Of a stretch of DNA of 32,000 bases, positions 1-26,243 are shown piece by piece. The notes under the pieces were generated by a model. That model was not told the origin of the DNA. It ran no database searches and saw only the letters and a list, made by a program, of their open reading frames with translations. The stretch is from NCBI GenBank assembly GCA_000503875.1, contig CP006913.1, forward strand, positions 780,001 through 812,000, written 5' to 3'. Numbering within the stretch: the stretch's first letter is position 1; every line of letters starts with the position of its first letter. The DNA is from Candidatus Saccharimonadota bacterium (GTDB lineage: Bacteria > Patescibacteriota > Gracilibacteria > Absconditabacterales > Absconditicoccaceae). A program made the position numbers and the translations under genes.

Positions 1-907
1 GTCCAGATTCAACCTTAGAATATTTAGAATATTTATTTAATAAATCAGATTGAATAAGAGGATAACACCAATTCTTTTTTTCAAGACTAATTATTTTTAT
101 TCAATTTTTATCAAGATAGTTCCTTGTAAAACTTTCAAATTCTTGATAAGAAAGCATATTTCACAATCTGAGAGAGAAAATTCATTTGGCAGTATTGGGG
201 ACAATATTAGCCTGAGAAACTATTATTCAATCTTTATCAATACCTCAATGTATACCAGCTAAATTTGTTAAAGAAACATATCAATCACTATCTTTTGTTT
301 GGATATATTCTTCTAAATTTTCAATATAATGGATATATTCTTCTATAGCATTGATTCCAAGATGTTTTAAAGCTGAATGGACAGACACTCATCCTATTTG
401 TAAATTTACAACAGCTATTCATCTAAATCATGTATATATTATTTTATTCGTTGGCTCAGTTACAATAGTTAATTTGGGTTTTATTTTTCATCCATACACT
501 TCTACAAATTTTTTCATACCCAAAAAGTTATATTCTTCATCTGTATACGAAAGAATCCAAAATTTAATTTTATTTTTAAGCATAAAATCTATCAATGCTA
601 TGTTAATAGCAACACCAGCTTTCATATCCACAGCTCCCCTACCATATAATTTATTTCAATCAATTCTAGGAATAAATTGTTCTTTAGATAATTCAGGAAC
701 CACATCTACATGTCATGCAAGGATAACATCAGGTTTATTTGTATTTTTTATAATCAGATTATACCTTCATTTATCTGATATATCCTGTTTTTCATAAATA
801 AGCTGATCTCAATAAATATTTCTAACATATCCTTCGATAAACTCGATAGCTTGGTTTTCTATCTGAGTTGTATCGAAAGTAATAAGCTTTTGTAAGAAAT
901 TTAACAT
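1..907 (-). CDS. M20 family metallopeptidase (ArgE/DapE/acetylornithine deacetylase-like); the C-terminus runs off the window
   Basis: ATG at 907..905. The frame has no TAA/TAG down to position 1 (checked codon by codon). Motifs with TGA=Gly: 'VILAGHVDVVP', 'DGNKLYGRGAVDMKAG', 'NLAGIHGGI'. The plus-strand ORFs 50..262 and 351..797 are antisense shadows. Confidence 0.8.
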
Positions 908-923
908 AATTATTTTAAAATAT

Positions 924-1463
924 TTAAAAGTTAATACGTTTTACCATAAATCATGAAACAATTTCAGAAAGTTTTTCAACATCACTATAATCATGATCAT
1001 TTCCTGGCAATTCCACGAAAGAAAAATCATTTGAAATCTGACTAACTTCACCTACAACTTCCAAATAGCTACCCGCTGGATCTTCTTTATTTTGGATGAA
1101 CAAGACGGGACATGAAATTTTGGATAGATACGTTTTTAACGAAAATCACATATTTTTAATATATCACAAAGGCAATCATACAAAAATACATTTTTTCGGG
1201 AGAAATCATTGATCGATCATAAGTTTCATAGCCAATACGGTTCCCAATGATTTTGCGAAGATCACCAAATCTTTCTGATCTTTGATTTTTGAGTAAACAA
1301 GATTTATCTCTTTTTCTATATCCATACTTCCCTCTCACGACAACCAATGTTGATATTCATGGATAGTTGTTTCATCAAAAAGAGAAGCGAGTTGTTCCTC
1401 CACTTTTTTAATCCAGCTTTGATTATGAATACTATTTCAACCAAGGAGAAGAAGGTTGGGCAT
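924..1463 (-). CDS. small alpha/beta-fold serine hydrolase (about 179 aa)
   Basis: ATG 1463 to TAA 924-926, no in-frame TAA/TAG. It has a nucleophile-elbow-like 'FAKSLG', then 'VLFIQNKEDP' and 'GNDHDY'. It sits 16 nt upstream of the M20 gene. Confidence 0.65.
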
Positions 1464-1487
1464 AAAAGCAAGATAAGGAATAAAAGA

Positions 1488-2294
1488 CTAAAGATCTATA
1501 ATCAACCCATCATGAGCAAAATCAAATGGAACATCCTTATAGGTATTTTTCATTTTTTCTAGATAATCTAGTCACCAGGCATTAATTTCTATCTCTTCAA
1601 TATGAGTCAAAAGAGTCTTTTTCGGAGCATACAATTTCAATCTATCCATTAATTGCGGGAATCAGATTTCACTTTTTACTTTTTCGTGACTAAAGACTCA
1701 ACATTCAGTAATCAGTAAATCAAGATTTTGCGCTTCTTGCTGAAAACTAATGGTATCACAAGGTGTATAGAGGAATCTTTTTCTTCATTGTTCAAAAAGA
1801 TATCAATAAGTTTCAGATTTTTCTCCTGTAAATCATATTGCGGTTACCTGCGTATCACCAATAGTTACAGACTGATTGTGTTCTATATATACGATATTTG
1901 CTAGACCAAGAACATCAACAAAATAGTTGATAGAAGGATAGTGTATTTTCATGTCTTCATGAACTCTTTTCGGCATATAGAGTTGGATAACTTTTTGTTT
2001 CTTTTCCTCTACAAAATCAAAATATGATTGTAAAACATTCCTCAAGCCAAAAGTATGATCTGGATGTCGATGCGTAATAAAAAGATTATCTACATCAGAA
2101 ATATCAGATTTATTTAGAGCGTCAGCAATATCTTCACCACAATCTACCAATGCTTTGATATCATGCACGTAAAGAGAACAACTATTTCTTTTATACGGCG
2201 CACCTATCGTCCTTGCTTTTTTACAAACATCACAGACACAAAAAGGTCTTGGTGTAGGTATAGCACCTCATGATCATAGAATTTGGAGTTTCAT
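1488..2294 (-). CDS. MBL-fold metallo-hydrolase, PqqB/PhnP-like
   Basis: ATG 2294 to TAG 1488-1490. The N-terminus 'MKLQILGSGGAIPTPRPFCVCDVCKKAR' matches the Cys-rich PqqB/PhnP N-terminus. 'ITHRHPDH' is the MBL HxHxDH motif. Track fragment 1833..2168 is extended through TGA codons. Confidence 0.8.
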
Positions 2295-2358
2295 GGGATA
2301 GTGAATTATAGAGTTAAATCATTATTATTTTAATGGTCAATCGGTGATTTTCAATATT

Positions 2359-2646
2359 TTATTGAAAAAAATCATCCTTAAATTGAATCATTCAAAATTT
2401 CAAAAAATCATGAAGTTGAATGTATATATCTTTAGTTATAGATTCTTTATCTCCTATATATTTTGAAAGGAAATAGTCAACAATCTCGCCAACAGTTTTT
2501 TTACCATCGATTTGATTAAATATTTCAGATGCAATACCATTCATCTCATATAAAATTTCTTTCTCTGTATCAAAAGCCATCCCAGCATTTTCTTGGACTC
2601 TATGGGTTAATTTATTCTTTTTAATAAAGATAGAATTTCAGTTCAT
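2359..2646 (-). CDS. PqqD-family peptide chaperone (RiPP recognition element)
   Basis: ATG 2646 to TAA 2359-2361. '...AFDTEKEILYEMNGIASEIFNQIDGKKTVGEIVDYFLSKY...DIYIQLHDFLKFGMI' follows the PqqD pattern (LNxtaaxIwxxxDGxrTvxEI). It sits 16 nt downstream of the rSAM gene. Confidence 0.7.
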
Positions 2647-2662
2647 AAAATCATTTTAATAA

Positions 2663-3547
2663 TTAAAGTTTACAAGTAATACAGGTCTTAAACTGATTAT
2701 ATTTAGATTCCTCATAAATATCTTTGACGGATTTTTCAAAAACATTTCACATTTTTTGAAAGACAAAAGTACAAGGATAGACATTTCAATCAGGAGCTAT
2801 GGTTATTCGTTTTTTTCATGCAACACATTCATTTTGATTTTTAACTTTTTCTTTTTCTTCTCAATATAGGTATTCTTCTAAAAACGAGTAAATATATTTA
2901 TCATGAAACAATAGATTTATTCTATTACTATAATTTTTTTTATAAGATTGCCATAATTTCACAATAAGATCTCTATATTCAGCGTATGGTAGTAATCATG
3001 TATAACTCTTATTATCTCTTATAGTTAACATACTTATTTCATGAGCTCATTTTGATATAGCAAAATCAATAACATCCTCTAATTCATTTTTATTTAATTC
3101 AGATATTGTAGATGAAACGGCCCGTTTTAATTTCGATTTTCATAAAAGATCAAAACAAGCCATTACTTTTTGAAAACTTCATTTTACGCCTCTAAAATCA
3201 TCATAAATATTTGGATCACAACTATCTAAACTAATATATATTTTATCCAATCATACTTTTTCTAAAAAAGTAATTTTCTCTTGTGTTAACAGGATGCCAT
3301 TTGACATCATAACAACATAAAATCATTTTTCTTTCATATACGTTAATGCCTCTTGTATATATGGATATGCAAGAGGTTCCCCATGAGAAAGGACTATTTT
3401 AATAACTCACAAGTCATACAAATCATCTATTAATGATTTCACAAAATCTATACTAAAACTTTTGTTGTTTTTTACAGTTTTAGCATAACAATGTTTGCAA
3501 TTCAGATTACAGATGTATGACAATCACAAAAAAGCTTGAAACAACAT
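2663..3547 (-). CDS. radical SAM enzyme with a short SPASM/twitch-like C-terminal Cys cluster (PqqE-like peptide maturase)
   Basis: ATG 3547 to TAA 2663-2665, 294 aa, every codon checked. It has 'CNLNCKHCY' (CxxxCxxC), 'LSHGEPL', and a C-terminal 'ECVAGKKRITIAPDGNVYPC...TCITC'. Confidence 0.85.
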
Positions 3548-3640
3548 TTTTCTAGATAATTAATTAAAAACATAATAACGTACTTTTCTTATCTCATGGG
3601 AAACAATACTAATTCTTTTGGCTTTTATTCAACTTCTAAA

Positions 3641-3694
3641 CTAGCAATTACAGCTAATTGTTTTCACGACTGTGATAGGTTTTATCCACATCAT
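3641..3694 (-). CDS. candidate 17-aa precursor peptide MMWIKPITVVKTISCNC (PqqA-like 'MWxKP' leader)
   Basis: This is the only ATG-initiated ORF on the operon strand in the 173-nt gap between the amidohydrolase stop and the rSAM start. Its N-terminus resembles PqqA ('MWKKPAF..', 'MWTKPAY..'). No obvious SD. It is very short, so it remains speculative. Confidence 0.25.
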   Translation of the reverse strand: MMWIKPITVVKTISCNC

Positions 3695-3720
3695 GATTAA
3701 TGGGTTAGGAAATAAAAGGT

Positions 3721-4689
3721 CTAGGATATTTTAAAACATCTACTAGCATTTTCATAGAATATAGATCTTAAGTCAGAGTGATTAAGCCCTTTTTTATATC
3801 ATTCATATATTAATCTATCTACGCTTCATCGATCTCTTTTACTCCATTTTCCTCTGTCATAGATATTCCATCAAAAGTCAGTATCAAACAGCAACTGATT
3901 CACAGGAATATTATCAAGACACCATTTCATCACATTATCATCTTTATCATAAAGAGACTCTTTCTCTTGTCATAAAAGCAGGTCTGGACCAATTCAGAAG
4001 CTTATATTTTTATTTCATTCAGCCAAACGTACTGCTTGTTTTGAAAGCCTTCACGCATGAGCAATATTAAGTTTTAAATTATTATCAATTCAAAACCTAA
4101 CTCGATCTATAGGATTATTTTCTTTTTTTAACTTTTGAAAATGATTTTTTGGATCTCAATCATAGTAATCTGTATGTACTATAAGTTGTTTGTCATATTT
4201 TTGTAACAGAAAAACCAAATCTTTTGATATATTTTTTGTTGATGTTGAAGTTGATATTCCATGAATTTTTACAGCACAAGTAGCTTCATTTTTTAATATT
4301 TTTTCCGTTTCTTCTTTATCATCTAAAATCGGATGTAACAATGGAACATTATAGAACACAACGTCATTTTGGGACGTATTCAATTCACGGGTAATCTTAA
4401 ATAGGTCTTCATTAACATCTCCATACGGATTCCTAGGATTTCTAATTGTTTTCTGTCACCAATTGTATGTTTCTTTACGTAGGTACATAATCTTTCACTC
4501 TTCAATTTCTCGCATACAAGGAAGATATGACATATCTTTTTTTTGTATTATTTGGGTTGCTACTGGAATCAATAAGGTTTTTTTAATATCAATCTTCGTC
4601 GCTTGTTTAATATATTCTTTTATATCACAGACAGCTCCAAAGGGATCTATTCCCACATGGCAATGAGCATCTATTACATCAAACGTCAT
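3721..4689 (-). CDS. amidohydrolase-2 / TIM-barrel metal-dependent hydrolase family protein
   Basis: ATG 4689 to TAG 3721-3723 (322 aa), codon-walked. It has 'VIDAHCHVG', 'NIAHAG' and 'LLFDTDFGW'. It joins track fragments 4495..4689 and 4156..4383 through TGA. Confidence 0.75.
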
Positions 4690-4824: not shown

Positions 4825-4851
4825 AAAAAAAACCAGTCTTCTCAAACTGGT
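4825..4851 (-). terminator. Rho-independent terminator after aspS
   Basis: On the minus strand: ACCAGT-8 nt loop-ACTGGT, followed by a run of 8 T. It lies 20 nt after the aspS TAA. Confidence 0.55.
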
Positions 4852-4870
4852 CTTTAAATCAAAATCTGAT

Positions 4871-6640
4871 TTATATAATTTTTATATTTGCTTGTTTCAA
4901 TGTACTATCAGATAATGCTGATGGTGACTTAAACAATAAATCTTGGGCCGACCCATTCTTTGGAAATGCAATAACTTCACGAATAGAAGACTCTTTCTGT
5001 AAGATCATCATCAATCTATCTAATCCCAATGCAATACCTCCATGTGGTGGTACCCCATAGGAGAAAGCATCCAACATATGACCTACACTATGCTGTGTTT
5101 GTTCTTTAGTATACCCCATCACTTTATAAGTTGCCTTAAGGATTTCTGGAATATGAGACCTGATAGATCCTCCTCCTATTTCGTTTCCGTTGAGAACAAT
5201 ATCGTATTGCTGTGCATGAATTTGATCTACATGTTCGCCTTTTATCAACCAATCTATATGCTCTATTTTTGGCATAGAAAAAGGGTTGTGGGTGAATTTC
5301 CATTTCCCTTCATCAGTTTTTTCAAACATAGGGAAATCAGTAATCCAACAAAATGCGAGCGTATCGTCATCATAGAGTTTCAACATTCTTCCTAGTTCTC
5401 TCCTTACTTGATCCAGTGCCTTGTTTGTTGTTTCTGGATCACTTGCAGAAAAGAATATTACATCACCTGGCTTTGCTTCTGCTTTTGCAACAATTCTTGC
5501 AGAAACATCTTCACCAAGATATTTGATAATTGGTGATTGTAGTTGATCTTCGTGAACAATAATATAGGCCAATCCTCACAATCATTTACTTATAGCAAGA
5601 TGAGTAAGATGTTCTATATCTTTTTTGGTAAGGTTTTTCTCTACTTTAATACATTTCACAATACCTCATTTTTCTATTGGAGCCTTAAAGACCTTAAAAT
5701 CAGTGTCTCTAACAATATCGGTAATATCTTTCATTTCCAAACCGAATCTAATATCAGGTTTATCAGAACCATATTTTTCCATAGCTTCAGCATAAGGAAT
5801 TCTGACTATCTTAGGTGATAATAATTTTTTTTCAGGATAATAATCTTTTACAATTTTGAGAAGCAATTCATCTATGATACTAATTACTTCTTCTGGCTTT
5901 GTAAAAGCCATTTCCATATCCAATTGAGTAAATTCTGGTTGTCTATCTCCTTTATCATCTTCATCACGAAAACATCTGGCTATCTGATAATATTTATCAA
6001 CTCCTGATACCATAAGCATTTGTTTGATTTGTTGAGGTGCTTGTGGTAACACATAAAAACTTCCTGGATGTATTCTACTTGGAACAATAAACTCTCTAGA
6101 TCACTCATCTGTACCTTTGTTGAGAATTGGAGTTTCTACTTCTATAAAATCTTCTTTATCCAAAACATCTCTCATAGTACGGATCACTCTATGCCTCATT
6201 ACAATGTTCTTTTTTACTTTCTCATTTCTCAAATCTAGAAATCTGTATTGTAATCTCTGTTGCTCATTTACTTTTTTAGATTCTTTTATTTCAAAGGGAA
6301 GTGTTCTCGATTCAGACAAAATATCAATAGACCTGGTATCTAATTCTATAGTTCCCGAAGATATCTTTTTGTTTATATCATCCTTATCTCTTTGGCAAAT
6401 AGATCAAGAAACCAATATAACAGATTCCTTTTTGTATCTCGTTATTTTCTCAATATCAGGGAAATCTTTTTTTGAAAATTTTACTTGAAAAACATGATCA
6501 TCCTCACGCAAATCAATAAAAACCAAATCTCCATGATCACGGATAGATGCAATCCATCAAGTAAGTTTTACTTCTTTTCCAATATCTTTTTCTGAAAGTT
6601 CTTTTATTTTATGTGTTCTATACGTAGAGAGAACTACCAT
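4871..6640 (-). CDS. aspS: aspS portion (class II aspartyl-tRNA synthetase), possible independent start at ATG 6640
   Basis: '[46 protein letters not shown]' looks like a normal AspRS N-terminus (OB fold). There is an in-frame ATG 21 codons after TGA 6704-6706. Confidence 0.55.
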
Positions 6641-8131
6641 TTTTTCTTTGTCTTTTTGTTCTACAGTACTATCTTTTGAAGACAAATACTCCTTATCAGT
6701 TTCTCATAGAGAAATCTTTTTGATTATCTCTTGTTTTATTTGTTCTGCAGCGGAACTTTTTCATAAAAGTTTTATAACTTCTCAAACCAAAACATTGATC
6801 TTTTTGGTATCACCTGCTTGAATTTTCCTGACGATATCTTTCTTTTCATCAAGAACTTGATCTACCATATGAGAAAAATCCTCTCCTGAAGATTGATGTT
6901 CCAAAACATATGTTTGATAATCAAAAGCTGGATCAATCAATATCTTCTTAAGAACATCTTTTAAAAGATCTTTAGCAAACTTTTTTTCTTTGTGATATAA
7001 AAGAAGTCCTGCTATTGTTTCCACATCCAATATTTTGTATTCTTCATCAGAAATATGGTTCATAAGGATTTTAGCTATACCAAGAAGATCTCAAACCTTA
7101 TCATTGATAGCAAACAAGGTATGGGCTTTTTGGATGTTTGAAGAAAAATATTTTGATTCCAAAACCGTTAATCAAACCTCCATCAATTTTTTTTCTATTT
7201 CATAGGGCAAGAACGCATATTCAACTTCAATATCTTTTTTGAGATCAGAAATATCTATAGAAGGAATATCTGGTTCTTTGATAAATCTATAATCGTTCGC
7301 GTTTTCTTTTGTTCTCATAATCTTGATAGTTTTGGTCTTCTCATCCCATAATACCGTTAACTGATCTGTTTTCGCTTCACCAGTTTTTTCCCAATGACGT
7401 ACCTGTGTTTCTATTTCTTTGTTGATAGCATCTTTTGCAAATTTAAACGAGTTTAAGTTCTTTATTTCTGTTCTTTCATTGAGTTTTTCTTCTCCTTTTT
7501 TTCTGAGTGAAATACTAATATCAGATCTCAAATGTCCTTTTTCCATATCTGCTTCAGAAATATGCAATGATCTAACCAAGTTCTGTATTGATTCCAGATA
7601 CACAATAGCATCATCAATTCTCTTAATACTAGGTTTTGTTACAATTTCTATAAGCGCTCTTCCTGATCTATTGAAATCAACCAAAGAATACCCTTCCTTA
7701 TGGACAAGCTTTCCTGCATCTTCTTCCAAATGAATATGATCCAAATCAACCGAAAATTCAGTTCCATCGTTTCTTATACAACGAACTTCTCATCACATAA
7801 CAATAGGGTGTTCCAACTGAGTCAACTGGAATCATTTTGGTAAATCTGGATATTCATAATGTTTTCTATCCCAATCAATAATATCCAAAATTTTAGATTT
7901 TATTGCAATCCCTAGTTTTACCGTTTTTGCAATAGCTTCAGCATTTGGTTGTGGCAAAACACCTACATGTCATGTACAAATAGGACAAACATATTTGTTT
8001 GGTTCTTTACTTTCTTCATTTTTACAAGAACAAAACATCTTTGATCTCGTGTTGAGTTCAACATGTGTTTCCAATCCTATAACGGGTTCTACTCATAGAT
8101 CTTCGAGCCTCTGATCTAATGTTTTCATCAT
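4871..8131 (-). CDS. continuous code-25 ORF encoding GatB (N-terminal part) fused in frame to aspartyl-tRNA synthetase (C-terminal part)
   Basis: One frame runs from ATG 8131 to TAA 4871-4873 (1086 codons) with no TAA/TAG; the junction 6641-6781 was checked triplet by triplet. GatB motifs: '[20 protein letters not shown]', 'HLEEDAGK', 'LVGEVIKLLGKSS'. AspRS motifs: 'LVFIDLRE', '[12 protein letters not shown]', '[10 protein letters not shown]', 'GGGSIR', 'GLDRLMM'. The only former-stop-like codon at the junction is TGA 6704-6706. Confidence 0.7.
6704..8131 (-). CDS. gatB: gatB portion (Asp/Glu-tRNA amidotransferase subunit B), delimited only by TGA 6704-6706
   Basis: This alternative reading assumes the TGA terminates. 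Homology to the GatB C-terminal (YqeY-like) tail ends around '...[11 protein letters not shown]', immediately before this TGA. Confidence 0.5.
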
Positions 8132-8151: not shown

Positions 8152-9564
8152 TTATTCACACAAAATATCTAGGTTGTAAGCAAATTTCAAAAGTTCATTA
8201 TCCTTGCTATAATCTCACGTAATTTGGATTCCTGTCGGAGAATGTAATGGTAATGAAATAGTCGGTAATTTCCCAAGACTAAACCCAACCGTGTACATAT
8301 CTGACATATACATAGCGAGCGGATCGTCCAAAGTAGTTCAGATTTTTGGTGGTGTCTTTGGAGTAACCGGAGAGAGAATAAAATCTACTGCTTCAAAATC
8401 TTTTTTGAAATGTTCAATTAATTTTTCTCTTGCAATTAACGCTTTTATATAATATTTATCTAGAAATCATTGAGAAAGAACCTGGTTTCCCGAAATAATT
8501 CTTCTCTTTGTCTCTTCTGAGAATCAAAAGAATCTGGTTTCTTCATAAAGGCTTTTAAGATCTTGAACATCAGCATGTCTATATCCATATTTAATTCCAT
8601 CTATACGAGACAAGTTGGAAGCGGTTTCCGCCATAGCAATAATATAATAGGTTGCAATAAGGAGTTCATCATTAAAGAAAGTTAATTCTTTGACTGTTGC
8701 TCCCTTTTCTTGGAGTTTAGAAAAGACTGTTTCAATGCTTTTTTTAATTTCTGGATCAAGAGCTTCGCTTTCTAGGAAACTCTTATAATACCCAACTTTG
8801 ACCTTAGAAAAATCAAACGTTTCTAAACTTTCCAAGGAATGTTTTTTGTAGGAGATACTGGTAAAATCTTTTTCATCCTTACCAGCCACGGCATTCATAA
8901 TAAGCTGAATATCTGAAACTGATTTTGCTATTGGTCAAACCGTATCCAAAGATGAGGCATAGGCCATACAACCATATCTAGAAACAGCTCAATAAGTAGG
9001 TTTCAATCAAATCACTTGGTTATATCCAGCGGGTTGTCTAATAGATCCTCACGTATCTTCTCCTATAGAAAAAGTGGTAATATCTGCGCTAACGTTTGCT
9101 GCGCTTCCTCAACTTGATCACCCAGCAACTAATGTTGGATCTATCGCATTTTTTGTAGGTCAAAAATGAGAGTTCTCTGTAGTACTTCCATGTCCAAATG
9201 CATCATTATTTTCTTTCGCAATTAAGATTGCTCCTTGATCCAAAAGCTTTTCAACAACCGTTGCGGTATAAGGAGCTCTATAATTTTCCAAAATCATAGA
9301 TGATCACGTAGTGATGGTATCCTTCACCAAAAAAGTATCCTTTACTCAAAAAGGGATTCCTTCAAGATCTTTAAGTTTTTTTCAAGATTTAATTTTCTGA
9401 TCAACAAGTTTTGCCTGCTGTAGTGCACTATCTTCCAAAATAAGAATACATGAGTTCAATGTATTATCTTTTGCTTTTTTGAGTTTCTCTTTAATAAAAT
9501 CTTCACAAGAATATTTTCCTGAAAGATAGTCTTCGTGGATAGAACTAATTGTAGATGTTTTCAT
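8152..9564 (-). CDS. gatA: Glu/Asp-tRNA amidotransferase subunit A
   Basis: ATG 9564 to TAA 8152-8154, no in-frame TAA/TAG (gaps checked). The amidase signature 'AGGSSGGSAANV' has two glycines written as TGA (9109-9111, 9118-9120). Also 'GIPFGVKD' and 'LPTISLP'. Confidence 0.9.
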
Positions 9565-9589: not shown

Positions 9590-9847
9590 TTATTCGATTA
9601 CTTTAGGTATCTTGAGGTAATTATCTTCTTTCTGAGGAAATGAATTAATGATTTGGGTATTTATGCTTTCTATTACCTCATCCTTTCTTAATTGAGAAAC
9701 TTTGATGGTGTGTTGGGCTTTATTAGCATGAGCAAATTTTGCAACTTCTTCATCTGACACATACTTATCCAAAACGTCAAAGAAGTTCATAATATTAGTC
9801 TGTTCTTTCGCTCATTTGATTTTAGAGAGTTTTTCCAAGCTGAACAT
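9590..9847 (-). CDS. gatC: Glu/Asp-tRNA amidotransferase subunit C
   Basis: ATG 9847 to TAA 9590-9592 (85 aa). The C-terminus '...LRKDEV...KEDNYLKIPKVIE' matches the GatC pattern. It sits 25 nt upstream of gatA. Confidence 0.8.
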
Positions 9848-10135: not shown

Positions 10136-11170
10136 TTATAACAGTTCTCAAGATACATTTGTAGCAAACATTTCTTTGGTGTTATACTTATTTTTATTTG
10201 CCAGTAACCACATAATTTTTGTATAAGCCGCCTCGCTTGTCATATTCATTCCTGAAATCACCCCTAAGTTGAGTACGGCTTGTGCTCCTTCATACTTATG
10301 TTCAGCAGGACCTGTATGACACTGTGATTTTAACACAATCACCATACCAGCAGCAATACACATTGCAATTTTATCTTGAAATTCTTTACTGGTAGGCACA
10401 TTTCCATCACCATACCCTTCCAAAACCAATCCTTCAACTTTAGATTGAACCAAATAATCGAAAATACTAAGATCCATTCATGGCACAAGTTTAAGCGGCA
10501 TCACTTTCGCATGAAGGTTTTCAAAAAGTTCTGTTTGTTGCTTTTCTACAATAGCGTTTGATTTACTTACTTGCTCCTTATTAAGGATCAGTTTTTTAGT
10601 CGCTGATCATTCAGCTTGCGTAAATCTCCCAATCAAATCATATTTAGGACTATCAAACGTATCAAAAGCACCAGTATCTTCTTTCTTTGCTTTATTTCAT
10701 TGAATCACTTTATCTCAGAAACAAATCAACACTCCCATCAATTCTGGATTTGTACTCACTTGTATAGCATTTACGAGATTATTAGGTCCATCACTATCCG
10801 CTTCACCAAGTCCTATCATAGATCCGGTCAACACTACTGGTTTTTTAAGTCCTTTAAGAAGAAATGACAACATAGACGATGTATACGCCATAGTGTCTGT
10901 TCCATGAGTAATAAGATATCCACTATACTTTGTAGGATCCTGAGCCTCCATTCTCAAAATATTATTTGCCAACAATTCTCGTTTTTCTGGAGTAAGATCA
11001 GAACTATCAATATTATATACAGATTCTATATCATCTATATTTGCATATGTTTTTAGTATTTGTTTTGTCTTTTGTATCATTGATTCACTATTGTCCTTAA
11101 CCTGTCTTACGTTATTTTCTTCTTCTTGAAACAATGTTCATCATGTAGTAAGTATTTTGACCTTTTTCAT
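10136..11170 (-). CDS. ansA: L-asparaginase, type I (cytoplasmic AnsA-like)
   Basis: ATG 11170 to TAA 10136-10138, gaps codon-walked. 'MKKVKILTTGGT' has both glycines as TGA (11138-11143). Also 'ITHGTDTMAYT', 'VVLTGSM', and a C-terminal 'NVSGELL' comparable to E. coli AnsA 'NLRGELT'. Confidence 0.85.
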
Positions 11171-11859: not shown

Positions 11860-12155
11860 GATTTCAACTTTGTTAAAAAATTATCTATAACGGATGGCTC
11901 ATATACAGGCATAGATAAGGATTCTAGAAGATGCACAATTGCTTTACTTAAAGGAATTTTTTTAAAAATAATGTCATGATACAAATTATCATAGATATAC
12001 GTAAAAAACTCATACAGTTTCTTTTGATCTTTTTCCTGCATGAGTTTTTCCTTGATAATGCTGAGGAGGAGCTTATCCATCTCTCACTTTGTGCTATTTT
12101 TGACTCTCTCTACAATTTCTTGTTTATCTAAGTTTTGGCTTACTATCTCCATCAT
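11853..12155 (-). CDS. hypothetical protein (100 aa)
   Basis: ATG 12155 to TAG 11853-11855. The last sense codon is TGA, which overlaps the next gene's ATG as ATGA. I recognise no motif. Confidence 0.5.
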
Positions 12156-12235
12156 TACAACCTAAAAAACTAAAGTCTCTTGACGGAGCCGACTATAGTT
12201 TTGCAAAAATAGAAAAAAACGGAAAAAATAGAGAA

Positions 12236-12255
12236 AATCTATTTTCTAATAGATT
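12236..12255 (-). terminator. hairpin overlapping the stop of the NACHT-HEAT gene
   Basis: AATCTATT-TTCT-AATAGATT (8-bp perfect stem), followed on the minus strand by T-rich sequence (TTCTCTATTTTTTCCGTTTTTTTC). Confidence 0.4.
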
Positions 12256-14470
12256 GAATAAAATTTATATTATCCTTTCATCAAATCTTTCATAAAACTT
12301 CTATAAGCTTATTTATTACATAATAATCTTCATCATCTTTAAATGATTTTATAAATTCTATATTTTCTTTTCATCAAAATTCTCATAATATTTCTATTAC
12401 CACCGCTCTTTTAAAACGATTATCCGTATATTTTAAATTTTTAATCCATTCTATAGTTTCATTATTTATATTTCATCATACAATATTAATTATCATATCT
12501 TTTGTCTCTAAATACTTCTTTTCTAAGAAAGATTTAATAAATTCCATATTTTCTTTTCATCAGATTTTTCATAGGACTTCTATGAGTTTATTTATCACAT
12601 AATCATCTTCATTATCTTCAAATGTTTTAATAAACTCTATATTTTCTTCTCATCAAATCTCTCACAATATTTCTATTACAGCAGCTCTTATAACATGGCT
12701 ATGATTATATTTCAAAGATTTAATAAACTCTATATCTTTTAATCAAATCATTTCAATTATTCTATTCTTTACTTTATAATAGTTTTCTTCTGACAAAGAT
12801 CTAAGAAAATCAACATTTTCTTCTCATCAAATTTTATTCAATGTGTTAATCAAAATTTGCCTTACATTATGATTTTTATCATTTTTAAATAATTTTATAA
12901 AGTTTATATTTTCTTCTCATCAAATTTCTCATAATGTCTCTATTAAAGCCCATCTTACTCAATAAACTCTATCGTTTCTAAAGGATTTAATGAAATTTAT
13001 ATTCTCTTCTCATCAAACCTTTCATAATGTTCTTATTAGAGACTCTCTAACTGCTGAGTCTTTATCATCCTTGAATACTTTAATGAAATTTATATTCTCT
13101 TCTCATCAAATTTTTCATAATGCCTCCACCATTGAAGCTCTCAAGATCTCATCTGCATTATCATTAAATGATTTAATGAAGTTTATATTCTCTTCTCATC
13201 AAATTTCTCATAATAATTGTATTATAGAAGAAGGAATTACTTTAAAAAAATCTCACTGATCCTCAGCCAAGGATCTAATAAAAAGCATATTCTCTTCTCA
13301 TCAAATTTCTCATAAAACATTAATAATTTCAAATATTATTTCTGTATGAAGACTATTACTATAAGATTTGATAAATTCTATATTTTCTTCTCATCAAATT
13401 TTTCATAAATTCTGAATAATTTTAACATTATCATAAGGATTATTAGCTATAGATCTTGCAACTATTAAATTTTCAAGACCTCATATATTACAAAGAGCAT
13501 CAATAACAGCGTCTTTTACTAATGAAGATGTATAGTGTTTAAAAGATTTAATCAAATCAATATTTTCTTCTCATCAAATTTTTCATAATACTTTTATCAA
13601 AGGAACTCTTACACGAGGATCCTCATCATTTTTAAATGATTTAATAATGGTTATATTTTCTTCTCATCAAATTTCTCATAATGTCTCTATTAAAGAAGCC
13701 CTGACATGGCAATTTTTATCGTCTTTAAACAATTTAATAAATTTTATATTTTTTTTTCATCAAACTTCTCACAATGTCTCTATTAAAGAACATTTCACAT
13801 AGCGATTGGTATCATTTTTAAATGATTTAATGAACTTTATGTTCTCTTCTCATCAAATTCGTCATAATACTTGTATCAAAGAAGACCTGACATGACAGTT
13901 TTTGTCGTCTTTAAATGATTTAATAAATTCTATATTTTCTTCTCATCAAATTTTTCATAATCATTCAATAACAGAAATTCTTAATTCACAATTTTTCGCT
14001 TTTTTAAATGATTTAATAAATTCTATATTTTCTTCTCATCAAACATTCGATATAATTTGAATTATTTTCTTAATTGCTGAGTAATCAATATCTTCTTTGT
14101 TATAATTAGAAGCTAAGTGACCTATCCTTTTATCGTTTAAATGATTTTTTATGCCATCTAAACGATTTTTCATATCATTTAAAATAAAACTCAAAGAGGG
14201 ATTCTTATAATGTAATGATTTGATAAATTTTATATTTTCTTCTCATCAAATTTGTCATAAAATCTCAATCACAGCATGTCTTACATCAGCAAAAGGATCA
14301 TTCACAAAAGATTTAATAAAATCCACATTTTCTTGTCATCAAATTTTTCACAACGAATTTAATAAAGATAATTTCAAAGAAAGATTTTCTTTATCTTTAA
14401 GAGATTTAATGAATTCTATAGTTTCTTCTCATCAAATTTCTCCCAAAATCGTTACTAAAGAACTCAATTT
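12239..14470 (-). repeat. coding tandem repeat: about 23 HEAT-like units, 93-nt (31-aa) period
   Basis: The plus-strand core 'ttcttctcatcaaattt' recurs, for example at 12278, 12371, 12473, 12557 and 12650. Spacings are 84-102 nt, mostly 93. The translated consensus is xVRxxLIExLGxIGGEENIxFIKSFKxDxN. Confidence 0.85.
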
Positions 14471-17188
14471 TTGATAATCATCTCTTATTATAGATTTTAA
14501 AAAATCTATATATCACTGTTCTTTAAGAAACAAAGCATTTTCTATCAAATCATCTAGTAATTTAGAATCAAAAGAAATACTAGAGGTATATTTTTCAAAC
14601 AGAGAGACATCTAAAGAATATAACATATATATTATTTTATCTTTTATATTTCCATAAAAGTTTCTATTTTCATAAATATAATCTAAAAAAGTTTTTTTCA
14701 ATCCAGAATTTTCTTTTTTATTTAAAATATCTATTAAAAATTTCAATGTCCAGTTATTAACTAGCTCCAATTTATTAAAAACGACATCTTCTAAATATAA
14801 TTCTACTTCTTTGTTTATTTTTATTGATAGCTGGTTAACAAATTCTTTTGCTGCAAAATATTCTTTGAAACTTTGATGAACAAAATCGTATTCTTTATTT
14901 TCATTTTTTCTGAATATCAAGTTCAAACAAGCATCATCAGAAATTATTCAAGGATAATCTCTTTTAATATTATTAAATTGTTGTTCATCTATATTTATTC
15001 ATTCAAAAATAGATTTATACGCTAATTTTCATAAAAAATCCTTTCTTTTATCTATTATATTTTCCATTTCATTTTGTCATTCGAAAGAATTTGGATTATT
15101 AACAGAAATTTTTCTTTTACCTTGTTTATTATTTTCTCGATTTAATAGCCTTAAATCAATAATTCTTTCATATAAATCAGAAATAGTAGATATTTTCTCA
15201 ATATCTTCTCATGTATCTATCAAAAAGCATATCATACTCAAAATAAGAGGATTTTTCTCTATTCCATTTAACCATTGATTTTTCAAGAAAAGATTGAAAT
15301 TATCTAATTTTTTATCTCAATTTTCTTTATTGGCAAAATATTTTTTCACATATCAATCTATATCTTGAATTTCTTTAAGTTGTATTATATTTATTTTTTC
15401 TAAAACTTTATTTCGATCTTCATTTTTATCCTGATTTCATTTAGGAAGATATCATTTTCTGCTAGTAATAACAATTTTCCCAGAAAATTTTACTAAATGT
15501 TCAAACAAAGATTTTATTTCATATTCACTTAATAAACTCTCATCCAAAGAATCTAGTATTAATGTTTTTTCTAAATCATTATCTTTTTTATCAAAATAAT
15601 TTAATTCTATTTGTTTTATTTTAGACAATACATCAGTTGCTTTTCCAATTCAAGATAAACTTAAAAATATAGGAAAATAAGCATCACTTCAAATCATAAA
15701 ATCAACATTCTTAATATCTTCGTTAATTTTACTTAATAGAAATGATTTTCAACTTCAAGCATCTGCTTCTATATATTGAATTTTATCCCATACAAAGACA
15801 GAACGGTTTGAAATATGTCTTGAAGGAAAATCGATAGATATTCTTGTTCGAAAATCATCAGCTTCTAATTGCTTATTTCTCTCATCTATTCTTTTAGGAT
15901 ATTCTAAAAAGTCCTTTAAATATCTATCATCTCAATCAAAATTAAATTCTGGTTCTATATCTTCTCAATTAACAATTCTCATATCCAAAGATTTACTTCT
16001 TATCTCCTCCACAAGAGAATATATATTTTCATAATAATTCATTATCAACAAAAAATCTTTATTAGATTTGGCTTTATCACGAATATAACAAATAAGATTA
16101 TCTGGAAGGGTTAATTCATATTTTTTTCTAAGAGAAAATAATTCTTTAATAAAAAATTCATAAATTTTTATGTCTGGGTTGTTAGTCATAATCAAATCAA
16201 AAATTGTTTTTAACTGACTTTCTTGGTTTTGGATAAGATCTTTTGTGTTTTTTCTTACAATATCAATCTCTAGATTTCCAACCAAATTTGCCAAACAAAA
16301 AAGAGTAAGATCAATATTTCAAACCGTTAAATATTTTTCATATAATTTTGGATTTTGTTTAAAATAGGTATTTATGATATTTTGAAGTTCAAAAAGATTC
16401 AACTCTTTCTTAAAAAAAGATTCGATATATTTTCTCAAAACCTCCTCTTTTCTAAAAACACTAAAAATTTCAGCTATATTTTGGTAATTCAAGCATAATA
16501 CATCACTTTCTTTTTCATAATTTACATACTCATTATTTTTATTAATATCAAATTGCCAAATATCTCATGTATTTATTTTGTTTTTACATAATTCTATTGT
16601 TTGTCATTCTTTTTTTGTAACCTCAGAAATTCATGCATTAGATTTATGGCCTAATAATACTATATTTTTATATTTATTATAGTCTAATTTATTTTCTCAT
16701 GTAAAAGATTTTAATATTTCATTATTCGTTAATTGGAGAATATTATAAAATTGTTCTACTCTAGTAAACAATCGTCAATCCTTTATCACAATATTTCAAT
16801 CAGGTAATTGGACTTTTTCTGAAGTATCTAGTGCATGATGTTGTTTTAAAACTCATATTTCATTTTTTTTAAGTATATTTACACTTCTAACAATTCTATT
16901 TATTGGCTTTTTTTGATTTTTTCCAGAAGAATATAAAATCAAAGTATCTTCTTTGTTACATCACATTTTTTTGAGTTTAGCAGATACCTGCTCCATTTGC
17001 GCCTCTCCCATACTATGTAAATCTGCATTTCATAATTGTTTACTGTCCTTTCATCTATTTGCCTCATCTACACTTATTCCATGTCTAACAAAAAAAATTC
17101 TACAAAGTACATCTTGTGTATGGTTTTGAATATTTTCAAGAACATTCTGTTGATTTAAAGAGTCTCCTTTTGATAGTTTATTTACCAT
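12239..17188 (-). CDS. 1649-aa STAND protein: N-terminal histidine-phosphatase (SixA/PGAM-like) domain, helical linker, NACHT NTPase, about 23 HEAT (PBS-lyase type) repeats
   Basis: ATG 17188 to TAG 12239-12241. Every triplet of the frame was read and there is no TAA/TAG. Phosphatase motifs: 'RIFFVRHGIS' (17078-17086 = RHG) and 'IVLLGHKSNAG'. NACHT motifs: Walker A 'EADAGSGKSFLLS' (both G = TGA, 15749-15757), Walker B 'LILDSLDE' (15539-15562), 'KIVITSR', 'NPLILSMIC'. C-terminal repeats are 'LGxIGGEENIxFIKSFK'. Confidence 0.85.
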
Positions 17189-17266
17189 AAAAAATAATCA
17201 CCGATAAAATATCGATAGATATTATATACAAAAGACACAAAAAGTCAATTTATTTATAGAAATATA

Positions 17267-19021
17267 TTATATTTTCTTAACAATAGATAATTTTATAATA
17301 CTTGGATTAAGTTTCATATAAAAATCATAGATACTACCTTTACAAATCAAAGGAAAGTTTTCACCAGTTTCTTTTTCAATAAGAGATATCAAAGGAAGAA
17401 CTATTTTCCCCAACATTTCATTTTTATTTTTACTATAACTAGATACTTCAAATGCTTTATTTTCCAAGTCTTGTCATATATTTTCCATAAGTTTATACAA
17501 AATATTGATGGTCGTTGTTTGAGAACAAAGATCAGTAGATGTTAATTTTTTTCCATTGAGATACATTTTATTATGTATCATATCCAACAATAAACCTTGT
17601 GTGTGATTAGCGAGAATTTCATTATAATTCGATATAAAATTTTTTCATTGATTATCTTTATAATATACTTGATCTTTTTGTATATATTCAGAAAATATTC
17701 AGTTATGTATCCATTGATCAATTTTTATCCCATCAGCAGAAACACCATCAATCCAAGAAGCGTATTCTAATGCTATATCTGAATATCAAATTTCTTTCAT
17801 CTTTTGTATCACTTGAAGTATAGTGTCTCTACTTTTATTAAATTTACTTATAAAAACAAAGCTTCCTCAAATTTTAAGAAAATTTATTGGATATATAGCC
17901 AACAATTCGTTATCAATCTTTTTAAAAACATTAAAATAAAATTCAAAACTATTTGTCATATGGTTGTTCCCTTCGACCATATTAGATATATAATTATTCT
18001 CTTTTTGTGTTTGTATAAATTCATCAATAGATTGTTCATCAAAAATTTTTTCTAATATTTTTTTGAAACAAGAAAGTGTTTTAAAATTATAAAGGAATGA
18101 TAAATCTTTAAATATTTGTTTAAAACCCACATTAAAAATATTTTTAAATGGAAATTGTTTAATAATTTTTATTCATTTATTGGTTAACAATTCTTCAGCA
18201 ACCTTTTCTAAATTTTCTAATTCATGTTCATAATTACGTGATTGATGCTGTATATGTTCTACTTTATTGCTTATTCATGAAAAAACTATTCCATAATCAA
18301 GATTTAATTCATCTATATTATTTATTATTCAAAAAAAATCCTTTATCTTATAATTATATATTTTATTATCAGATAATACTGTTGGTTCTTCACTAAATGT
18401 TATTGTTGGAAGTTGTGTATTCATCATAGCAGAATAACAATTATTGCCGACAGAATTTCAATATTTAGATATTTTTTCTATTTCTAATCATAAAGCAAAA
18501 ATTTCATTAAATTCTTTACTTTGAATAAATTCGTCATAATTTTTAAAGAAATCATTAGGTATTTTCTTTAATATAACATATATTCAGGTAGCAATTAAAG
18601 AAGCCATCGTTCAAGAAAAAGCAAGACCGTGTCATCTTGGTGTTTCAGACAAAAGATTGATAGATATTCATTTATCATATCAGTTTTTTTCCAAAAAATC
18701 CAATAAAAATTCTTTTATTTTATGTTCTTGTCTATTTATATCAGCAAAATTAGTTTTATTAAATTTCTTTTCTAAAATATCAAAAAAAAAGGTATCTTCA
18801 AACTTTATTGTTTTTTCGCTTATTACATTAATTCAACAGAATGTTTTTGTGGGTATTTTTTTTCTTATATGAAGTTTATCCTTATTCTCTCAGAAACCTA
18901 AATTCCAAGCAAAACAATGATTTGCGCTTACCACCAAATCATTCTTAGCAAAAAATTTCTCATATTCAGATGCAAAATGTTTTTGTAGGGATTTGGTATT
19001 CATAGGAATTCTTTCTTCCAT
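17267..19021 (-). CDS. GHMP-kinase-like protein with a C-terminal OmpR/PhoB-type winged-helix-like domain (584 aa)
   Basis: ATG 19021 to TAA 17267-17269, every triplet checked. GHMP motif II-like 'LSETPRGHGLAFSGTMASLIATG' (18584-18652), and a later 'KIGGSFVFIS'. The C-terminus 'LLLDMIHNKMYLNGKKLTSTD...NEMLGKIVLPLISLIEKETGENFPLICKGSIYDFYMKL' follows the Trans_reg_C pattern. Confidence 0.65.
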
Positions 19022-21337: not shown

Positions 21338-23737
21338 TTAAAAATCATAGAGCACTCTAATTCAATTAGCTGAGTTATGTAACATACGATATTCATCTAT
21401 AATTCAACTTTCATACGTACGTTGAAGCATCAACATTACCCATCCTCTTACTTCAGGCATTTTAGGATCTTCTATCATACGCATAATACCATTATCTTTC
21501 AATGCTTGAAGATGTTTAACATAATAGAATTCATTTCATTCACTTTGAGCTATATTGTACGTTTCCCCAAAAATTAATCTCGACAAAATAGTTCCAAACT
21601 GAGCTCTAGTAACTATATCATTAGGATTAAATGATTTTCATGGTTGGATTCCATCAGATTCCAATCCCATCAATCAAAGTTGACAAGCAATTTTACTATA
21701 AAATTTCATTTCAGAAGATTGATCTTCCATATCATTATATTGATCACATCATTCTTTGGCAATATCTGGATATAATCCAACAATAGTAACAGCATATTCT
21801 ACAATCATTTTTGCCAAATGCTTTCTCAATAAAGTACCTTTAATATCAGCATTTTCTATAGGACACATGGTTGTTATTCAAAGACCATAAGCAAATTGAA
21901 ATGCATCAGTAAGTTCTTGAGTATAAGGAGAATTTTCAACAGGACAAGTATCAGCTGACCCATGACCATCACTACTACAAGTATAATCATAATAACTATA
22001 AGAATCATCGCCATCAGGACAATAATCTTTGACTAAATAACTTCATCACCCTCGACCTCATCAATCCAATGATCAATGGTCAAATATTTTTTGAAGAATA
22101 AGTGTTGATCCAGAAAGGATTGCTTTAACATTATTTCCCATAATACGAAGCGATGGTGTATCAACAAAACTAACCTGGGTAGAACCAGAATTTAATTCAC
22201 TTCATTTATAGATAAACATTCCTTGATTTGTTAATCAGCAATCAAGATATCAAGTTCCCTGAGGAGACAAGGATAAAACTGGATTTAATCCACCCTGTAT
22301 TGTTAATATATTTCTCATAAAAAGCACAGAATTTGTCTTATATTGAACATATTTATCATCACAACATCAAAGCTGAGAACAACTTGGTCTTGTTACAAAA
22401 CTATAGTCTGAAATTGTTCATTGATTTCACTGCATATCACGAACAGATACACGTACACGAATAGTTCACGATGCAGGAAAATCTACATGATTAGGTATTT
22501 CGACAAACCAGTTGGGCTGTAAAGCGGTACTACTAAGACCTGAAAGATTCAACATATTTCCACTAAACACATATGGCCCATAACTTGTTCCGTTGATTCC
22601 ACTAAGCGTTACCACAATACTTCCAGAATTTACCCCAGCCCATTCATCTTGCACTCAAAATCTAATCGGAGCATCATAGGTCACAAATGTAGCATTATCT
22701 ACTGGAAATCTAGTATCAGAAATCAAGGTCGGACCCTGAGCTTGATTAAATAAAAGAGAGGTTGAAGAAAGAAATCACATACGATCTCTTACAGAAATAT
22801 TGATAGTAATAGGCTTTTCTATTCCATAATTAAACAAGGCTCATGATGGAATGGTAACGGTATAATTTTTATCAAGAAATTGCCAGGTCTTACCATTTGC
22901 AATAGCATATGTTCATCAATTAAACGTACGGTTTTGACCATTTCCTGCCAAAGTAATTTGTAATGTAGAAATATTAATTCCATATTGAGGATCTATACCC
23001 CAAATATTTCCAGTCCATTGACCACCTGTCCAAACATAAGGAACATTAGTACTAGAACCAGCATTATCTGTTAATGAAAGAGAAATTCAAGAAAGGTATG
23101 TTTGTTTAATTGCTCAGTTAATTGGCAATGCTACAGAAATAGATGGATTGTTTGTATCAGTAACACACGGTTGCTGAAGAACTCAGTAATTTCAAGTCAT
23201 AAATTGAGATTGTCTGGTAGTATTTATTATTTCTGTTCCAAAAGGAGAACTCAATGTGGTTTCTATAGTAGAATTGGGAGTACCTATTTCGCCATTATAT
23301 TCCATACCAAAAATTGTAGAATACGGAGTAGGAGAATAACGAGGGACAAAAAATACTGTTCCATACAATCCTGTTGTTCACTTGTAAGCATAAAGATTAT
23401 TTTTACGATCTATTTGTAAAATAGAAAAATTACTTCCAGTTTTCCAAGAAGGTGAAGATTCAGATGACCAATCCAAAAAAGTAGTAGTACTTGCTTCAAA
23501 TAAGGTAGTTCTAAGATCAGATGTTGAATACGAAATATGTTGTGGATCCAAAACAAGATGAAAACGACCTGCTTTAGCTCAATCAACATTAGCTTCTGTA
23601 GAAGCTTTTACCAACAATTTTTCATTACAACCTTGTTGATAAGGGTAATTAACTGATCATGTATCAAAATAATAATACTGAGAACTTACTCATCAAAAGC
23701 ATATACTCAAAACAACTATGAGATAGGCTTTTTTCAT
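21338..23737 (-). CDS. secreted surface protein A (799 aa): signal peptide, N-terminal module shared with protein D, Ig-like 'DEWAGVNSGS' domain, Gly/Cys-rich linker, three C-terminal SLH-like repeats
   Basis: ATG 23737 to TAA 21338-21340, every triplet checked. N-terminus 'MKKAYLIVVLSICFGG'. C-terminal repeats: 'LTDAFQFAYGLGITTM...LLRKHLAKMIVEYAV', 'FNPNDIVTRAQFGTILSRLIFG', 'YYVKHLQALKDNGIM'. Its start overlaps the tail of gene B. Confidence 0.75.
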
Positions 23738-26220: not shown

Positions 26221-26243
26221 AGAAAACAAATAAAAATATAAAA

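Follow-up and report, generated by a model that had tools for sequence, protein, structure and literature searches.

A candidate precursor/radical SAM/PqqD peptide family in UGA = Gly and other uncultured bacteria and its possible link to class II aminoacyl-tRNA synthetases

Microcin C is a Trojan-horse inhibitor of AspRS that is freed by cellular peptidases, and peptidases and hydrolases also serve in its processing and immunity. In the tiarins, or trifolitoxin family, genes encoding aminoacyl-tRNA synthetases (aaRS) are enriched at the TfxB/TfxC clusters, the cluster copies are duplicates and their specificity corresponds to the residue preceding the modified Gln, while trifolitoxin itself is an experimentally validated Trojan-horse inhibitor of ArgRS, released by PepN (Travin et al., bioRxiv 2025, doi 10.64898/2025.12.02.691738). 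For the authors of that study the shared-scaffold principle is unique, and the targets that they predict are mostly of class I; no radical S-adenosylmethionine (rSAM) enzyme is featured in their preprint (doi 10.64898/2025.12.02.691738). Here we describe a seven-gene peptide operon on the minus strand, at positions 1-4689 of a 32,000-nucleotide stretch of a Candidatus Saccharimonadota genome (contig CP006913.1, positions 780,001 to 812,000; this whole stretch is called the window), in which a short precursor peptide ending in Cys is encoded together with an rSAM enzyme, a PqqD-family protein and several hydrolases. The precursor, the rSAM enzyme and PqqD apparently define a rare, undescribed family of peptides synthesized ribosomally and modified post-translationally (RiPPs). 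We propose, with a probability of about 0.5, that this would be a family of rSAM-made Trojan-horse inhibitors directed against class II synthetases, with the neighbouring aaRS as immunity.

The family resembles the tiarins in having a ribosomal peptide, a predicted maturation through a RiPP recognition element (RRE) and aaRS genes beside the clusters, and also in the proposed logic of a carrier peptide, a warhead and a resistant target, although our family is known from sequence alone. The enzymes are different: tiarins depend on the flavin mononucleotide dehydrogenases TfxB/TfxC, with or without YcaO, whereas here the corresponding candidates are an rSAM/SPASM enzyme and PqqD, and neither the window unit nor its relatives contain TfxB/TfxC domains. 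The residue modified in tiarins is Gln, which is not conserved in our precursors, where the C-terminal Cys is the presumed site; tiarin precursors measure 23-65 aa, against 17-32 aa in our family; and all synthetases that match our precursors are of class II. Tiarin hosts are mainly Actinomycetota/Pseudomonadota, while the family described here occurs in lineages using genetic code 25 (UGA = Gly), of Patescibacteria type, and in other uncultured lineages. With microcin C the family shares a very short ribosomal precursor whose C-terminal residue is the (proposed) modification site. However, microcin C uses the ThiF-like adenylyltransferase MccB on the C-terminal Asn of a precursor of ~7 aa, whereas the terminal residue here is Cys and no ThiF-like domain occurs in any family locus. 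Moreover, the aminoacyl mimic of microcin C is the last residue, while in our family it is the penultimate residue that appears to carry specificity.

The precursor is encoded by a mini-ORF (open reading frame) at 3641-3694 (-), whose translation is the 17-aa peptide MMWIKPITVVKTISCNC followed by a stop codon. This peptide contains a leader-like motif, W-x-K-P...K, presumed to be the element recognized by PqqD as RRE protein, and ends in Asn-Cys, the presumed core. Homologous mini-ORFs are found directly upstream of the rSAM gene in 10 other loci, with position, length class and motif kept. The corresponding full peptides are MTWKTPVTRVRNIKLGC, MKKRRQTPIIRVRNVKFGC, MQKSKWVKPVIRTRSLRLHC (present in two loci), MKKPKLVKPVVRTRSLKSPC and MKKWVKPTVRTRTIAMGC, and for other relatives the C-terminal parts are ...WVKPLIRCRSLRLHC, ...WEKPVVRSRSLRLHC, ...WVKPVVRTRSLQMGC and ...WVKPVIRIRSLQMGC. 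A Cys-stop closes all 11 precursors, and a K/T-Pro is conserved 11 residues before the Cys, again in 11/11. This conservation marks the mini-ORF as a genuine precursor gene. The remaining loci that we fetched do not contain the precursor motif, save for two spurious matches, and padded precursors gave nothing significant against NCBIfam and Pfam.

Two features of the DNA around the precursor gene were observed in addition. A G+C-rich hairpin with a T-run follows the precursor stop directly in L003 (1375-1410), L086 (1635-1670) and L044 (9925-9975), and was not found in the window; such attenuator-like arrangements are common in RiPP clusters. A 13-mer, TTTTATTTCCTAA, lies ~10-20 nt 5' of the precursor start in the window (~3700-3715) and in L003 (~1300-1312), and less clearly in L086; it may serve as a signal for translation or transcription.

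Concerning the distribution of the family, the independent relatives L003, L086 and L044 have rSAM enzymes that are 67%, 57% and 36% identical to that of the window. A profile built on three rSAM sequences sets 16 proteins (216-510 bits) apart from the next match at 181 bits, and an exhaustive profile search found ~11 representatives with at least 327 bits among 1.84 billion sequences. A scan of 185,579 species genomes yielded L044 alone as a family member and was swamped by the generic CNLxCxHC motif: the rSAM enzymes of its remaining 79 loci are 24-33% identical and come without the precursor motif. Precursor, rSAM and PqqD genes occur in that order, with the PqqD homolog directly after the rSAM gene, in all 11 loci for which DNA was available. 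We are highly confident that the window belongs to the precursor/rSAM/PqqD family. No relative was confirmed when metagenome contigs were scanned with the rSAM alignment, probably since Gly = UGA breaks the back-translation; a degenerate pattern allowing KGN for Gly had 0 matches in metagenome contigs and 0 in viral contigs; and plasmids and phages, searched by tblastn, yielded no family member, with 31% for the best match. Two viral contigs retrieved with the precursor DNA pattern, L100 and L101, were discarded because the matches lie inside unrelated frames and are not followed by Cys-stop. In the literature that we searched, whose coverage is incomplete so that a prior description is possible, we came across no rSAM/PqqD family connected with synthetases.

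A possible link with synthetases emerges from the genes that surround the loci. An aaRS gene is present in or beside 9 of 12 loci (binomial p ~6e-5 at a background of 20%, which we consider generous). In the window, whose precursor ends in ...NC, the neighbour is a GatB-AspRS fusion closing an asparaginase-GatC-GatA-GatB/AspRS block that provides Asn-tRNA by the tRNA-dependent route. Precursors ending in ...HC are accompanied by HisRS in L044 and L092, with differing gene arrangements, and HisRS is also found, by Pfam domain matches only, on the contig carrying P0016. The ...PC peptide of L090 has ProRS, and the ...GC peptides of L088 and L095 have GlyRS. Two other loci whose peptides end in ...GC have different neighbours: L086 (...FGC) has an AspRS-ND upstream and an AsnRS downstream, and L093 (...MGC) an AspRS-ND together with a divergent AspRS paralog of 677 aa inside the operon. 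The neighbours exceed the NCBIfam equivalog cut-offs for their identities, except for the GlyRS of L095, the HisRS of the P0016 contig and the divergent paralog of L093; the L095 enzyme was identified through the Pfam class II core, anticodon-binding and GlyRS-insertion domains. In this same locus the ending ...GC was forecast from the GlyRS neighbour before the peptide was read, and the forecast was borne out.

The penultimate residue of the precursor equals the specificity of the aaRS in 5 of the 8 informative loci (permutation p 0.011, random-specificity p 4e-5), and in 6 of 8 if the Asn route of the window is counted (permutation p 0.002). Within the clade with a full SPASM domain the rule holds in 5/5 loci, and each aaRS that fits it is of class II. 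In the deep-branching clades (L093 and the UGA = Gly clade) every neighbour is an Asp/Asn enzyme of class IIb, but these comprise two different types of AspRS, which argues against simple inherited synteny. The AsnRS of L086 (8914-10254) deserves a separate comment: it has its own terminator, uses UGA in 0/33 Gly codons and has 45% GC, whereas in the genes around it UGA makes up 35-65% of the Gly codons and the GC content is 32-39%. From this composition it looks like a recently imported standard-code spare synthetase at the end of the cluster. Overall we consider it fairly probable that the family is tied to aaRS function. This link was not part of the original prediction, which covered 1-4689; the GatB-AspRS gene (4871-8131) lies just outside.

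Because the penultimate residue tracks a neighbouring class II aaRS, a Trojan-horse function is the reading that we consider most likely. In such a mechanism, judging from the behaviour of PqqD/RRE proteins, the PqqD chaperone would bind the precursor through its W-x-K/T-P...K/R motif and present it to the rSAM enzyme, which would act on the C-terminal Cys; the action on Cys is suggested by the invariance of the Cys-stop and its fixed distance from the recognition motif. Precedents for the chemistry include thioether formation (SkfB), C-terminal oxidative decarboxylation (MftC) and Cbeta oxidation (anSME). Co-transcription suggests that the amidohydrolase-fold protein, the metallo-beta-lactamase (MBL) protein, the alpha/beta-hydrolase and the M20 peptidase may tailor, trim or detoxify the product. 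The resulting C-terminal X-Cys* would block the synthetase of amino acid X, recognition and uptake would use the basic N-terminal part as a handle, and the adjoining synthetase would confer immunity. In the window X would be Asn, and, speculatively, a route to Asn-tRNA through AspRS-GatB/GatCA and asparaginase that is free of AsnRS could leave the producer insensitive.

A more specific version of this proposal is put forward only tentatively. It would make the family a second, enzymatically independent and "programmable" group of aaRS inhibitors, in which rSAM and PqqD work on a C-terminal Cys and the penultimate residue designates the target, the targets being the class II enzymes for His, Pro, Gly and Asn/Asp and the Cys-derived moiety a possible mimic of adenylate or phosphate. 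The carriers would be mainly ultra-small uncultured bacteria, including UGA = Gly lineages, and might use the product against hosts or competitors. Most relatives encode a B12-rSAM with a Gfo/Idh/MocA oxidoreductase and/or a carbamoyltransferase of NodU/TobZ type, and the extras vary among an M19 dipeptidase, Amidohydro_2, a creatininase, a PF01663 nucleotide pyrophosphatase and Glycos_transf_3, which has a phosphoribosyltransferase fold. The phosphoribosyltransferase fold, the nucleotide pyrophosphatase, the sugar oxidoreductase and the carbamoyltransferase of the relatives, with the PhnP-like phosphodiesterase of the window, hint at a nucleoside-like warhead in the family, which at present is speculation.

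Several observations weigh against the inhibitor proposal. The rule is broken by the Asp/Asn enzymes of two loci, L086 (...FGC) and L093 (...MGC), and the 8.8-kb contig of L003 carries no aaRS. The match in the window is itself indirect, as it sets Asn against AspRS/GatCAB, and the AspRS, separated from the operon by a terminator, looks like a housekeeping copy. The sample is small, with 8 informative loci that are partly related by descent, and genomes of the Candidate Phyla Radiation are small and rich in aaRS genes. The aaRS survey covered contigs only. The window unit contains neither a transporter nor an acetyltransferase gene for immunity. Finally, the window cluster is without the B12-rSAM, the oxidoreductase and the carbamoyltransferase typical of the relatives, so that its product may differ from theirs or be degenerate.

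The same neighbours could be explained if the synthetases were biosynthetic and supplied aminoacyl-tRNA or adenylate chemistry for the product, as occurs with the SerRS homolog of valanimycin and with aaRS-like ligases. A candidate for such a role is the divergent AspRS-like paralog of L093 (6196-8229), which lies inside the operon between oxidoreductase and methyltransferase genes and reaches 95 bits where the cut-off is 353; it probably does not function as a synthetase and may be an adenylating enzyme of biosynthesis. The alternatives named by the tiarin authors also include tRNA-dependent biosynthesis (doi 10.64898/2025.12.02.691738). However, the matching residue is already encoded in our precursors, which makes its addition a second time needless, most neighbours score as bona fide full-length synthetases, and several are divergent, convergent or separated from the cluster by a terminator. 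We consequently regard a biosynthetic role of the neighbours as very improbable.

Returning to the Trojan-horse proposal, the enzyme at its centre is the rSAM protein (294 aa, 2663-3547, -), recognized by the Pfam models Radical_SAM PF04055 (87.6 bits) and SPASM PF13186 (40.3 bits, cut-off 21.5). As first noted from the sequence, it combines a CxxxCxxC motif (C13, C17, C20) with a short SPASM/Twitch-like Cys cluster: the C-terminal set is C241...G254xxxxC259...C289xxC292, followed by the stop codon, so the SPASM domain ends after its first CxxC and is left with 4 Cys, in a Twitch-like form that implies a single putative auxiliary cluster. In agreement, the Twitch domain of BtrN matches residues 239-289. 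The truncation is common to the three UGA = Gly members (window 2663-2700, L003 and L086), and the standard-code relatives keep the full seven-Cys SPASM, CX2CX5CX3C...C; the comparison points to a clade-wide natural change from a two-cluster SPASM to a one-cluster, Twitch-like domain. The protein next to the enzyme is the PqqD-family protein (95 aa, 2359-2646, -), which matches Pfam PF05402 with 36.4 bits (cut-off 23.4) and is an RRE-type peptide chaperone by family, in line with the PqqD first proposed. The rSAM core, the auxiliary domain, the adjacent PqqD and the adjacent precursor of the generic rSAM-SPASM/Twitch + RRE class are thus all present.

The rSAM enzyme stays below all NCBIfam equivalog cut-offs, with scores (against the cut-off) of 131/500 bits for NirJ2, 130/500 for AhbD and 96.5/381 for PqqE (TIGR02109), and, for the other peptide maturases, 91.9/850 for AlbA, 90.1/265 for MftC, 74.3/300 for SkfB and 63.6/625 for StsB. 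A reading as viperin, an anti-phage protein, was also considered and rejected: the PADLOC pVip models give 73-77 bits only over the generic rSAM core (residues 12-193), which is weaker than NirJ2/AhbD, and the locus has both an RRE and a precursor.

Among solved structures the sactisynthase SkfB (6efn, E 3e-16) is the nearest, followed by PqqE, and this similarity raises the possibility of an ordinary sactipeptide- or ranthipeptide-like bacteriocin or signal, in which a thioether would join the terminal Cys to a residue upstream of it and the aaRS link would be a sampling artefact of small, aaRS-dense genomes. SkfB is also a single-cluster Twitch enzyme, PqqD partners are typical of such systems, and the N-terminus of one precursor weakly resembles the StsA sactipeptides, with an E of 0.06 that is not significant. 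With SkfB/AlbA-type maturases the family further shares the rSAM core, the Twitch/SPASM domain, the RRE partner and a short Cys-containing precursor. It differs from them in that their equivalog thresholds (AlbA, SkfB, StsB) are missed widely, the RRE is a separate protein and the precursors, much shorter than typical sactipeptides, have one conserved Cys, at the C-terminal end. The tailoring enzymes of the relatives are of sugar or nucleotide type (Gfo/Idh/MocA, carbamoyltransferase, PF01663, Glycos_transf_3), and an aaRS adjacency in 9/12 loci with a specificity match in 5-6/8 would hardly arise by chance; to our knowledge, no aaRS linkage is known for SkfB/AlbA-type systems. An ordinary thioether peptide is for these reasons improbable.

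The original prediction had placed the operon near the pathway of pyrroloquinoline quinone (PQQ). Like PQQ and mycofactocin systems, the locus has a short precursor, a PqqD-type chaperone and an rSAM/SPASM enzyme, and the W-x-K-P motif recalls the N-termini of PqqA peptides (M-x-W-x-K-P...). This likeness appears to be superficial. Besides the PqqE score reported above, the PqqD-family protein reaches 27.7 bits with the PQQ-specific equivalog TIGR03859, below its cut-off of 46; the MBL protein matches no PqqB; and MMWIKPITVVKTISCNC contains neither Glu nor Tyr, with no PqqA model matched when padded peptides were searched against NCBIfam/Pfam at E up to 10. The precursors have neither the cross-linked Glu...Tyr pair (Glu-X3-Tyr) of PqqA nor the Val-Tyr core of MftA. 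The absence of PqqC was confirmed, as no PqqC-type domain occurs among the contig genes, and MftD/E/F are absent from the window. The framing as a PQQ-like pathway consequently falls, while its corollary stands, namely that the product is not PQQ and is undescribed in the literature searched.

A related explanation does not depend on PQQ itself. In mycofactocin biosynthesis a hydrolase frees the C-terminal residue once MftC has modified it, and a cofactor could be made here in similar style, the rSAM enzyme modifying the C-terminal residue and the hydrolases excising a small molecule, in which case the aaRS would be incidental or part of amino-acid metabolism. The core of rSAM, PqqD and short peptide fits this scheme, MftC and PqqE are among the recognizable relatives of the enzyme, the hydrolases of the window are co-transcribed with the core, and some small-amide hydrolase is found in each well-sampled locus (M19, Amidohydro_2, creatininase, or M20 with the amidohydrolase fold). 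However, the hydrolase types change between loci, the cut-offs of PQQ and mycofactocin enzymes are all unmet, and the core of a cofactor should be invariant, so that a varying penultimate residue which tracks the aaRS is left unexplained. We judge this cofactor pathway unlikely.

The hydrolases of the operon vary from one relative to another. The first gene of the unit (322 aa, 3721-4689, -) encodes a sequence orphan with just 5 relatives among 5.8 billion proteins and without any match by sequence in Pfam, NCBIfam or the PDB. Its residues D7, H9, H11, K141, H143, H172, D174, H211 and D271 are invariant, and the DxHxH...H...HxD...H...D set that they form fits the amidohydrolase superfamily. 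An AlphaFold model built on the five relatives (pLDDT 76, pTM 0.80), for which the database version with UGA = Trp was used, matches TIM barrels of the Amidohydro_2 branch in Foldseek (probability 1.0, TM 0.55-0.6), the best matches being IDCase, 2f6k, LigJ, ACMSD and COG3618; the model thus assigns the protein to an amidohydrolase-superfamily TIM barrel of the Amidohydro_2 branch.

The MBL protein (268 aa, 1488-2294, -) was identified by Pfam Lactamase_B_2 (68.9 bits), and its N-terminal FCVCDVC (CxCxxC) aligns to the Cys-rich site of PhnP. NCBIfam gave PhnP at 57.5/272 and RNase Z at 53.6/293, with GPMC models also matched, and PDB matches were 6b9v and PhnP 3g1p; no PqqB model of NCBIfam and no PqqB structure of the PDB was matched. 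Of the "PqqB/PhnP-like" label with its CxC..C N-terminus, the PhnP half is therefore kept and the PqqB half dropped, and the protein is predicted to be PhnP-like, of phosphodiesterase type. The alpha/beta-hydrolase (179 aa, 924-1463, -) matches Pfam Abhydrolase_11 with 31.2 bits. The M20 metallopeptidase (2-907, -), last in the unit, is cut by the window edge and is complete, with 359 aa, in a longer contig of the same organism (L001, see below); Pfam finds Peptidase_M20 and M20_dimer, and the best NCBIfam score, 106 bits against cut-offs of 217-412, indicates a divergent member of the ArgE/DapE family.

These hydrolases had been taken as the defining novelty of the operon, and the comparison with the relatives does not support this. 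No other family locus has homologs of the MBL or M20 proteins, and the homolog of the alpha/beta-hydrolase in L044 (36% identical) is located in a Nudix/phosphomutase housekeeping block, 6 kb from the cluster. The loci have their own hydrolases, namely M19 in L003 and L086, Amidohydro_2 in L088 and L098, and a creatininase of the MftE family, which no locus but the distant relative L093 has. Only the Amidohydro_2 fold recurs, in L088 and L098, and by BLASTP the window protein shows no significant similarity to these, just collinear metal-ligand motifs. The synteny with relatives that was to be checked thus holds for precursor, rSAM and PqqD and fails for the hydrolases.

In order of transcription the operon contains the amidohydrolase-like gene, the precursor, rSAM, PqqD, PhnP-like MBL, alpha/beta-hydrolase and M20. 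Order and families are those first proposed, Pfam supporting the M20 peptidase and the alpha/beta-hydrolase and Foldseek the amidohydrolase, at the level of the fold; the tight packing of the minus-strand genes likewise holds. The gaps are 16 nt (M20/hydrolase), 24 nt (hydrolase/MBL), 64 nt (MBL/PqqD), 16 nt (PqqD/rSAM) and 173 nt (rSAM/amidohydrolase), and in the last of these the precursor starts only 26 nt past the stop of the amidohydrolase-like gene. An intrinsic-terminator-like hairpin at 4828-4855 (-), with a 12-bp stem and a T-run, closes the transcript of GatB-AspRS and sets the 5' boundary of the operon, and a strong hairpin terminator directly follows the full M20 gene as read in L001. 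Since terminator hairpins stand on both sides, the seven genes form one bracketed, co-transcribed unit. A scan of sigma-70 promoters was uninformative, with 28 matches against 32 in shuffled sequence and therefore no enrichment.

The genetic code of the window is code 25 (UGA = Gly), as first read, and not code 4. When TGA is read as sense, the sequence in open frames of 100 codons or more grows from 10.0 kb to 46.3 kb (six frames, nested frames counted). Of the 180 cells of standard-code homologs at the 12 in-frame UGA columns of the rSAM gene, 107 hold Gly and 0 hold Trp, three columns being Gly in 15/15 homologs, while the single UGG aligns to Trp; these UGA columns, which match Gly and never Trp, decide between the two codes. 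The first 13.5 kb of the window are 100% identical to L001, a 139-kb contig of a sediment metagenome. A "96%" relative in the databases is the same organism and truly 100% identical, because the database reads UGA as Trp. Public collections translate code-25 genes in this way (P0001, P0002, P0013, P0129, P0130). The lineage is systematically under-detected by standard mining, which misses such clusters because recoding hides the genes (UGA as Trp, or untranslated), and back-translation scans miss Gly = TGA.

Beyond the operon, the GatB-AspRS gene (4871-8131, -) is a continuous code-25 ORF of 1086 aa, with GatB_N, tRNA-synt_2 and GAD domains in L001, and is preceded by GatA (8152-9564, -), GatC (9590-9790, -) and the asparaginase (10136-11170, -) that starts the block. 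The union of GatB with a bacterial-type AspRS (GAD domain) in one ORF is in effect a covalent "transamidosome". We found no mention of this fusion in the literature searched; NCBIfam holds an AspRS-GatC fusion (NF009460). An M16 (HxxEH) peptidase flanks the cluster in L001 (13761-14984, just past window position 1) and in L088 (8849-10141), and might recur as a component of the clusters, for instance to remove the leader, although the two copies share just 28% identity. Farther along, an ORF of 1649 aa (12239-17221, -) contains 92 UGA codons and has HEAT-repeat matches in L001; the region that holds it (12000-19000) is AT-rich, with 22-25% GC against 30-35% in the rest of the window. Large proteins with signal peptides follow in a paralogous series (21338-23746, 24487-26292, 26244-28556 and 28508-29575, all -), near-identical in their N-terminal halves and in the C-terminal "QDDG..YQIAGDL..ILGQYDFMINGNDIAIL" modules, and are probably surface or adhesion proteins.

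As regards the meaning of these results, should the inhibitor idea be wrong, precursor, rSAM and PqqD with an invariant Cys-stop would still constitute a new RiPP family that is clean, small and testable. If that idea is true, an antibiotic logic of one scaffold and many synthetases would have been invented at least twice, with unrelated chemistry, and would cover class II synthetases, which are largely outside the targets of tiarins. The residue before the terminal Cys would then be a simple sequence rule predicting the target, and a new radical-SAM reaction on a C-terminal Cys would become available for study. For the organisms themselves, the family would be a rare case of specialised, possibly offensive metabolism in reduced UGA = Gly genomes.

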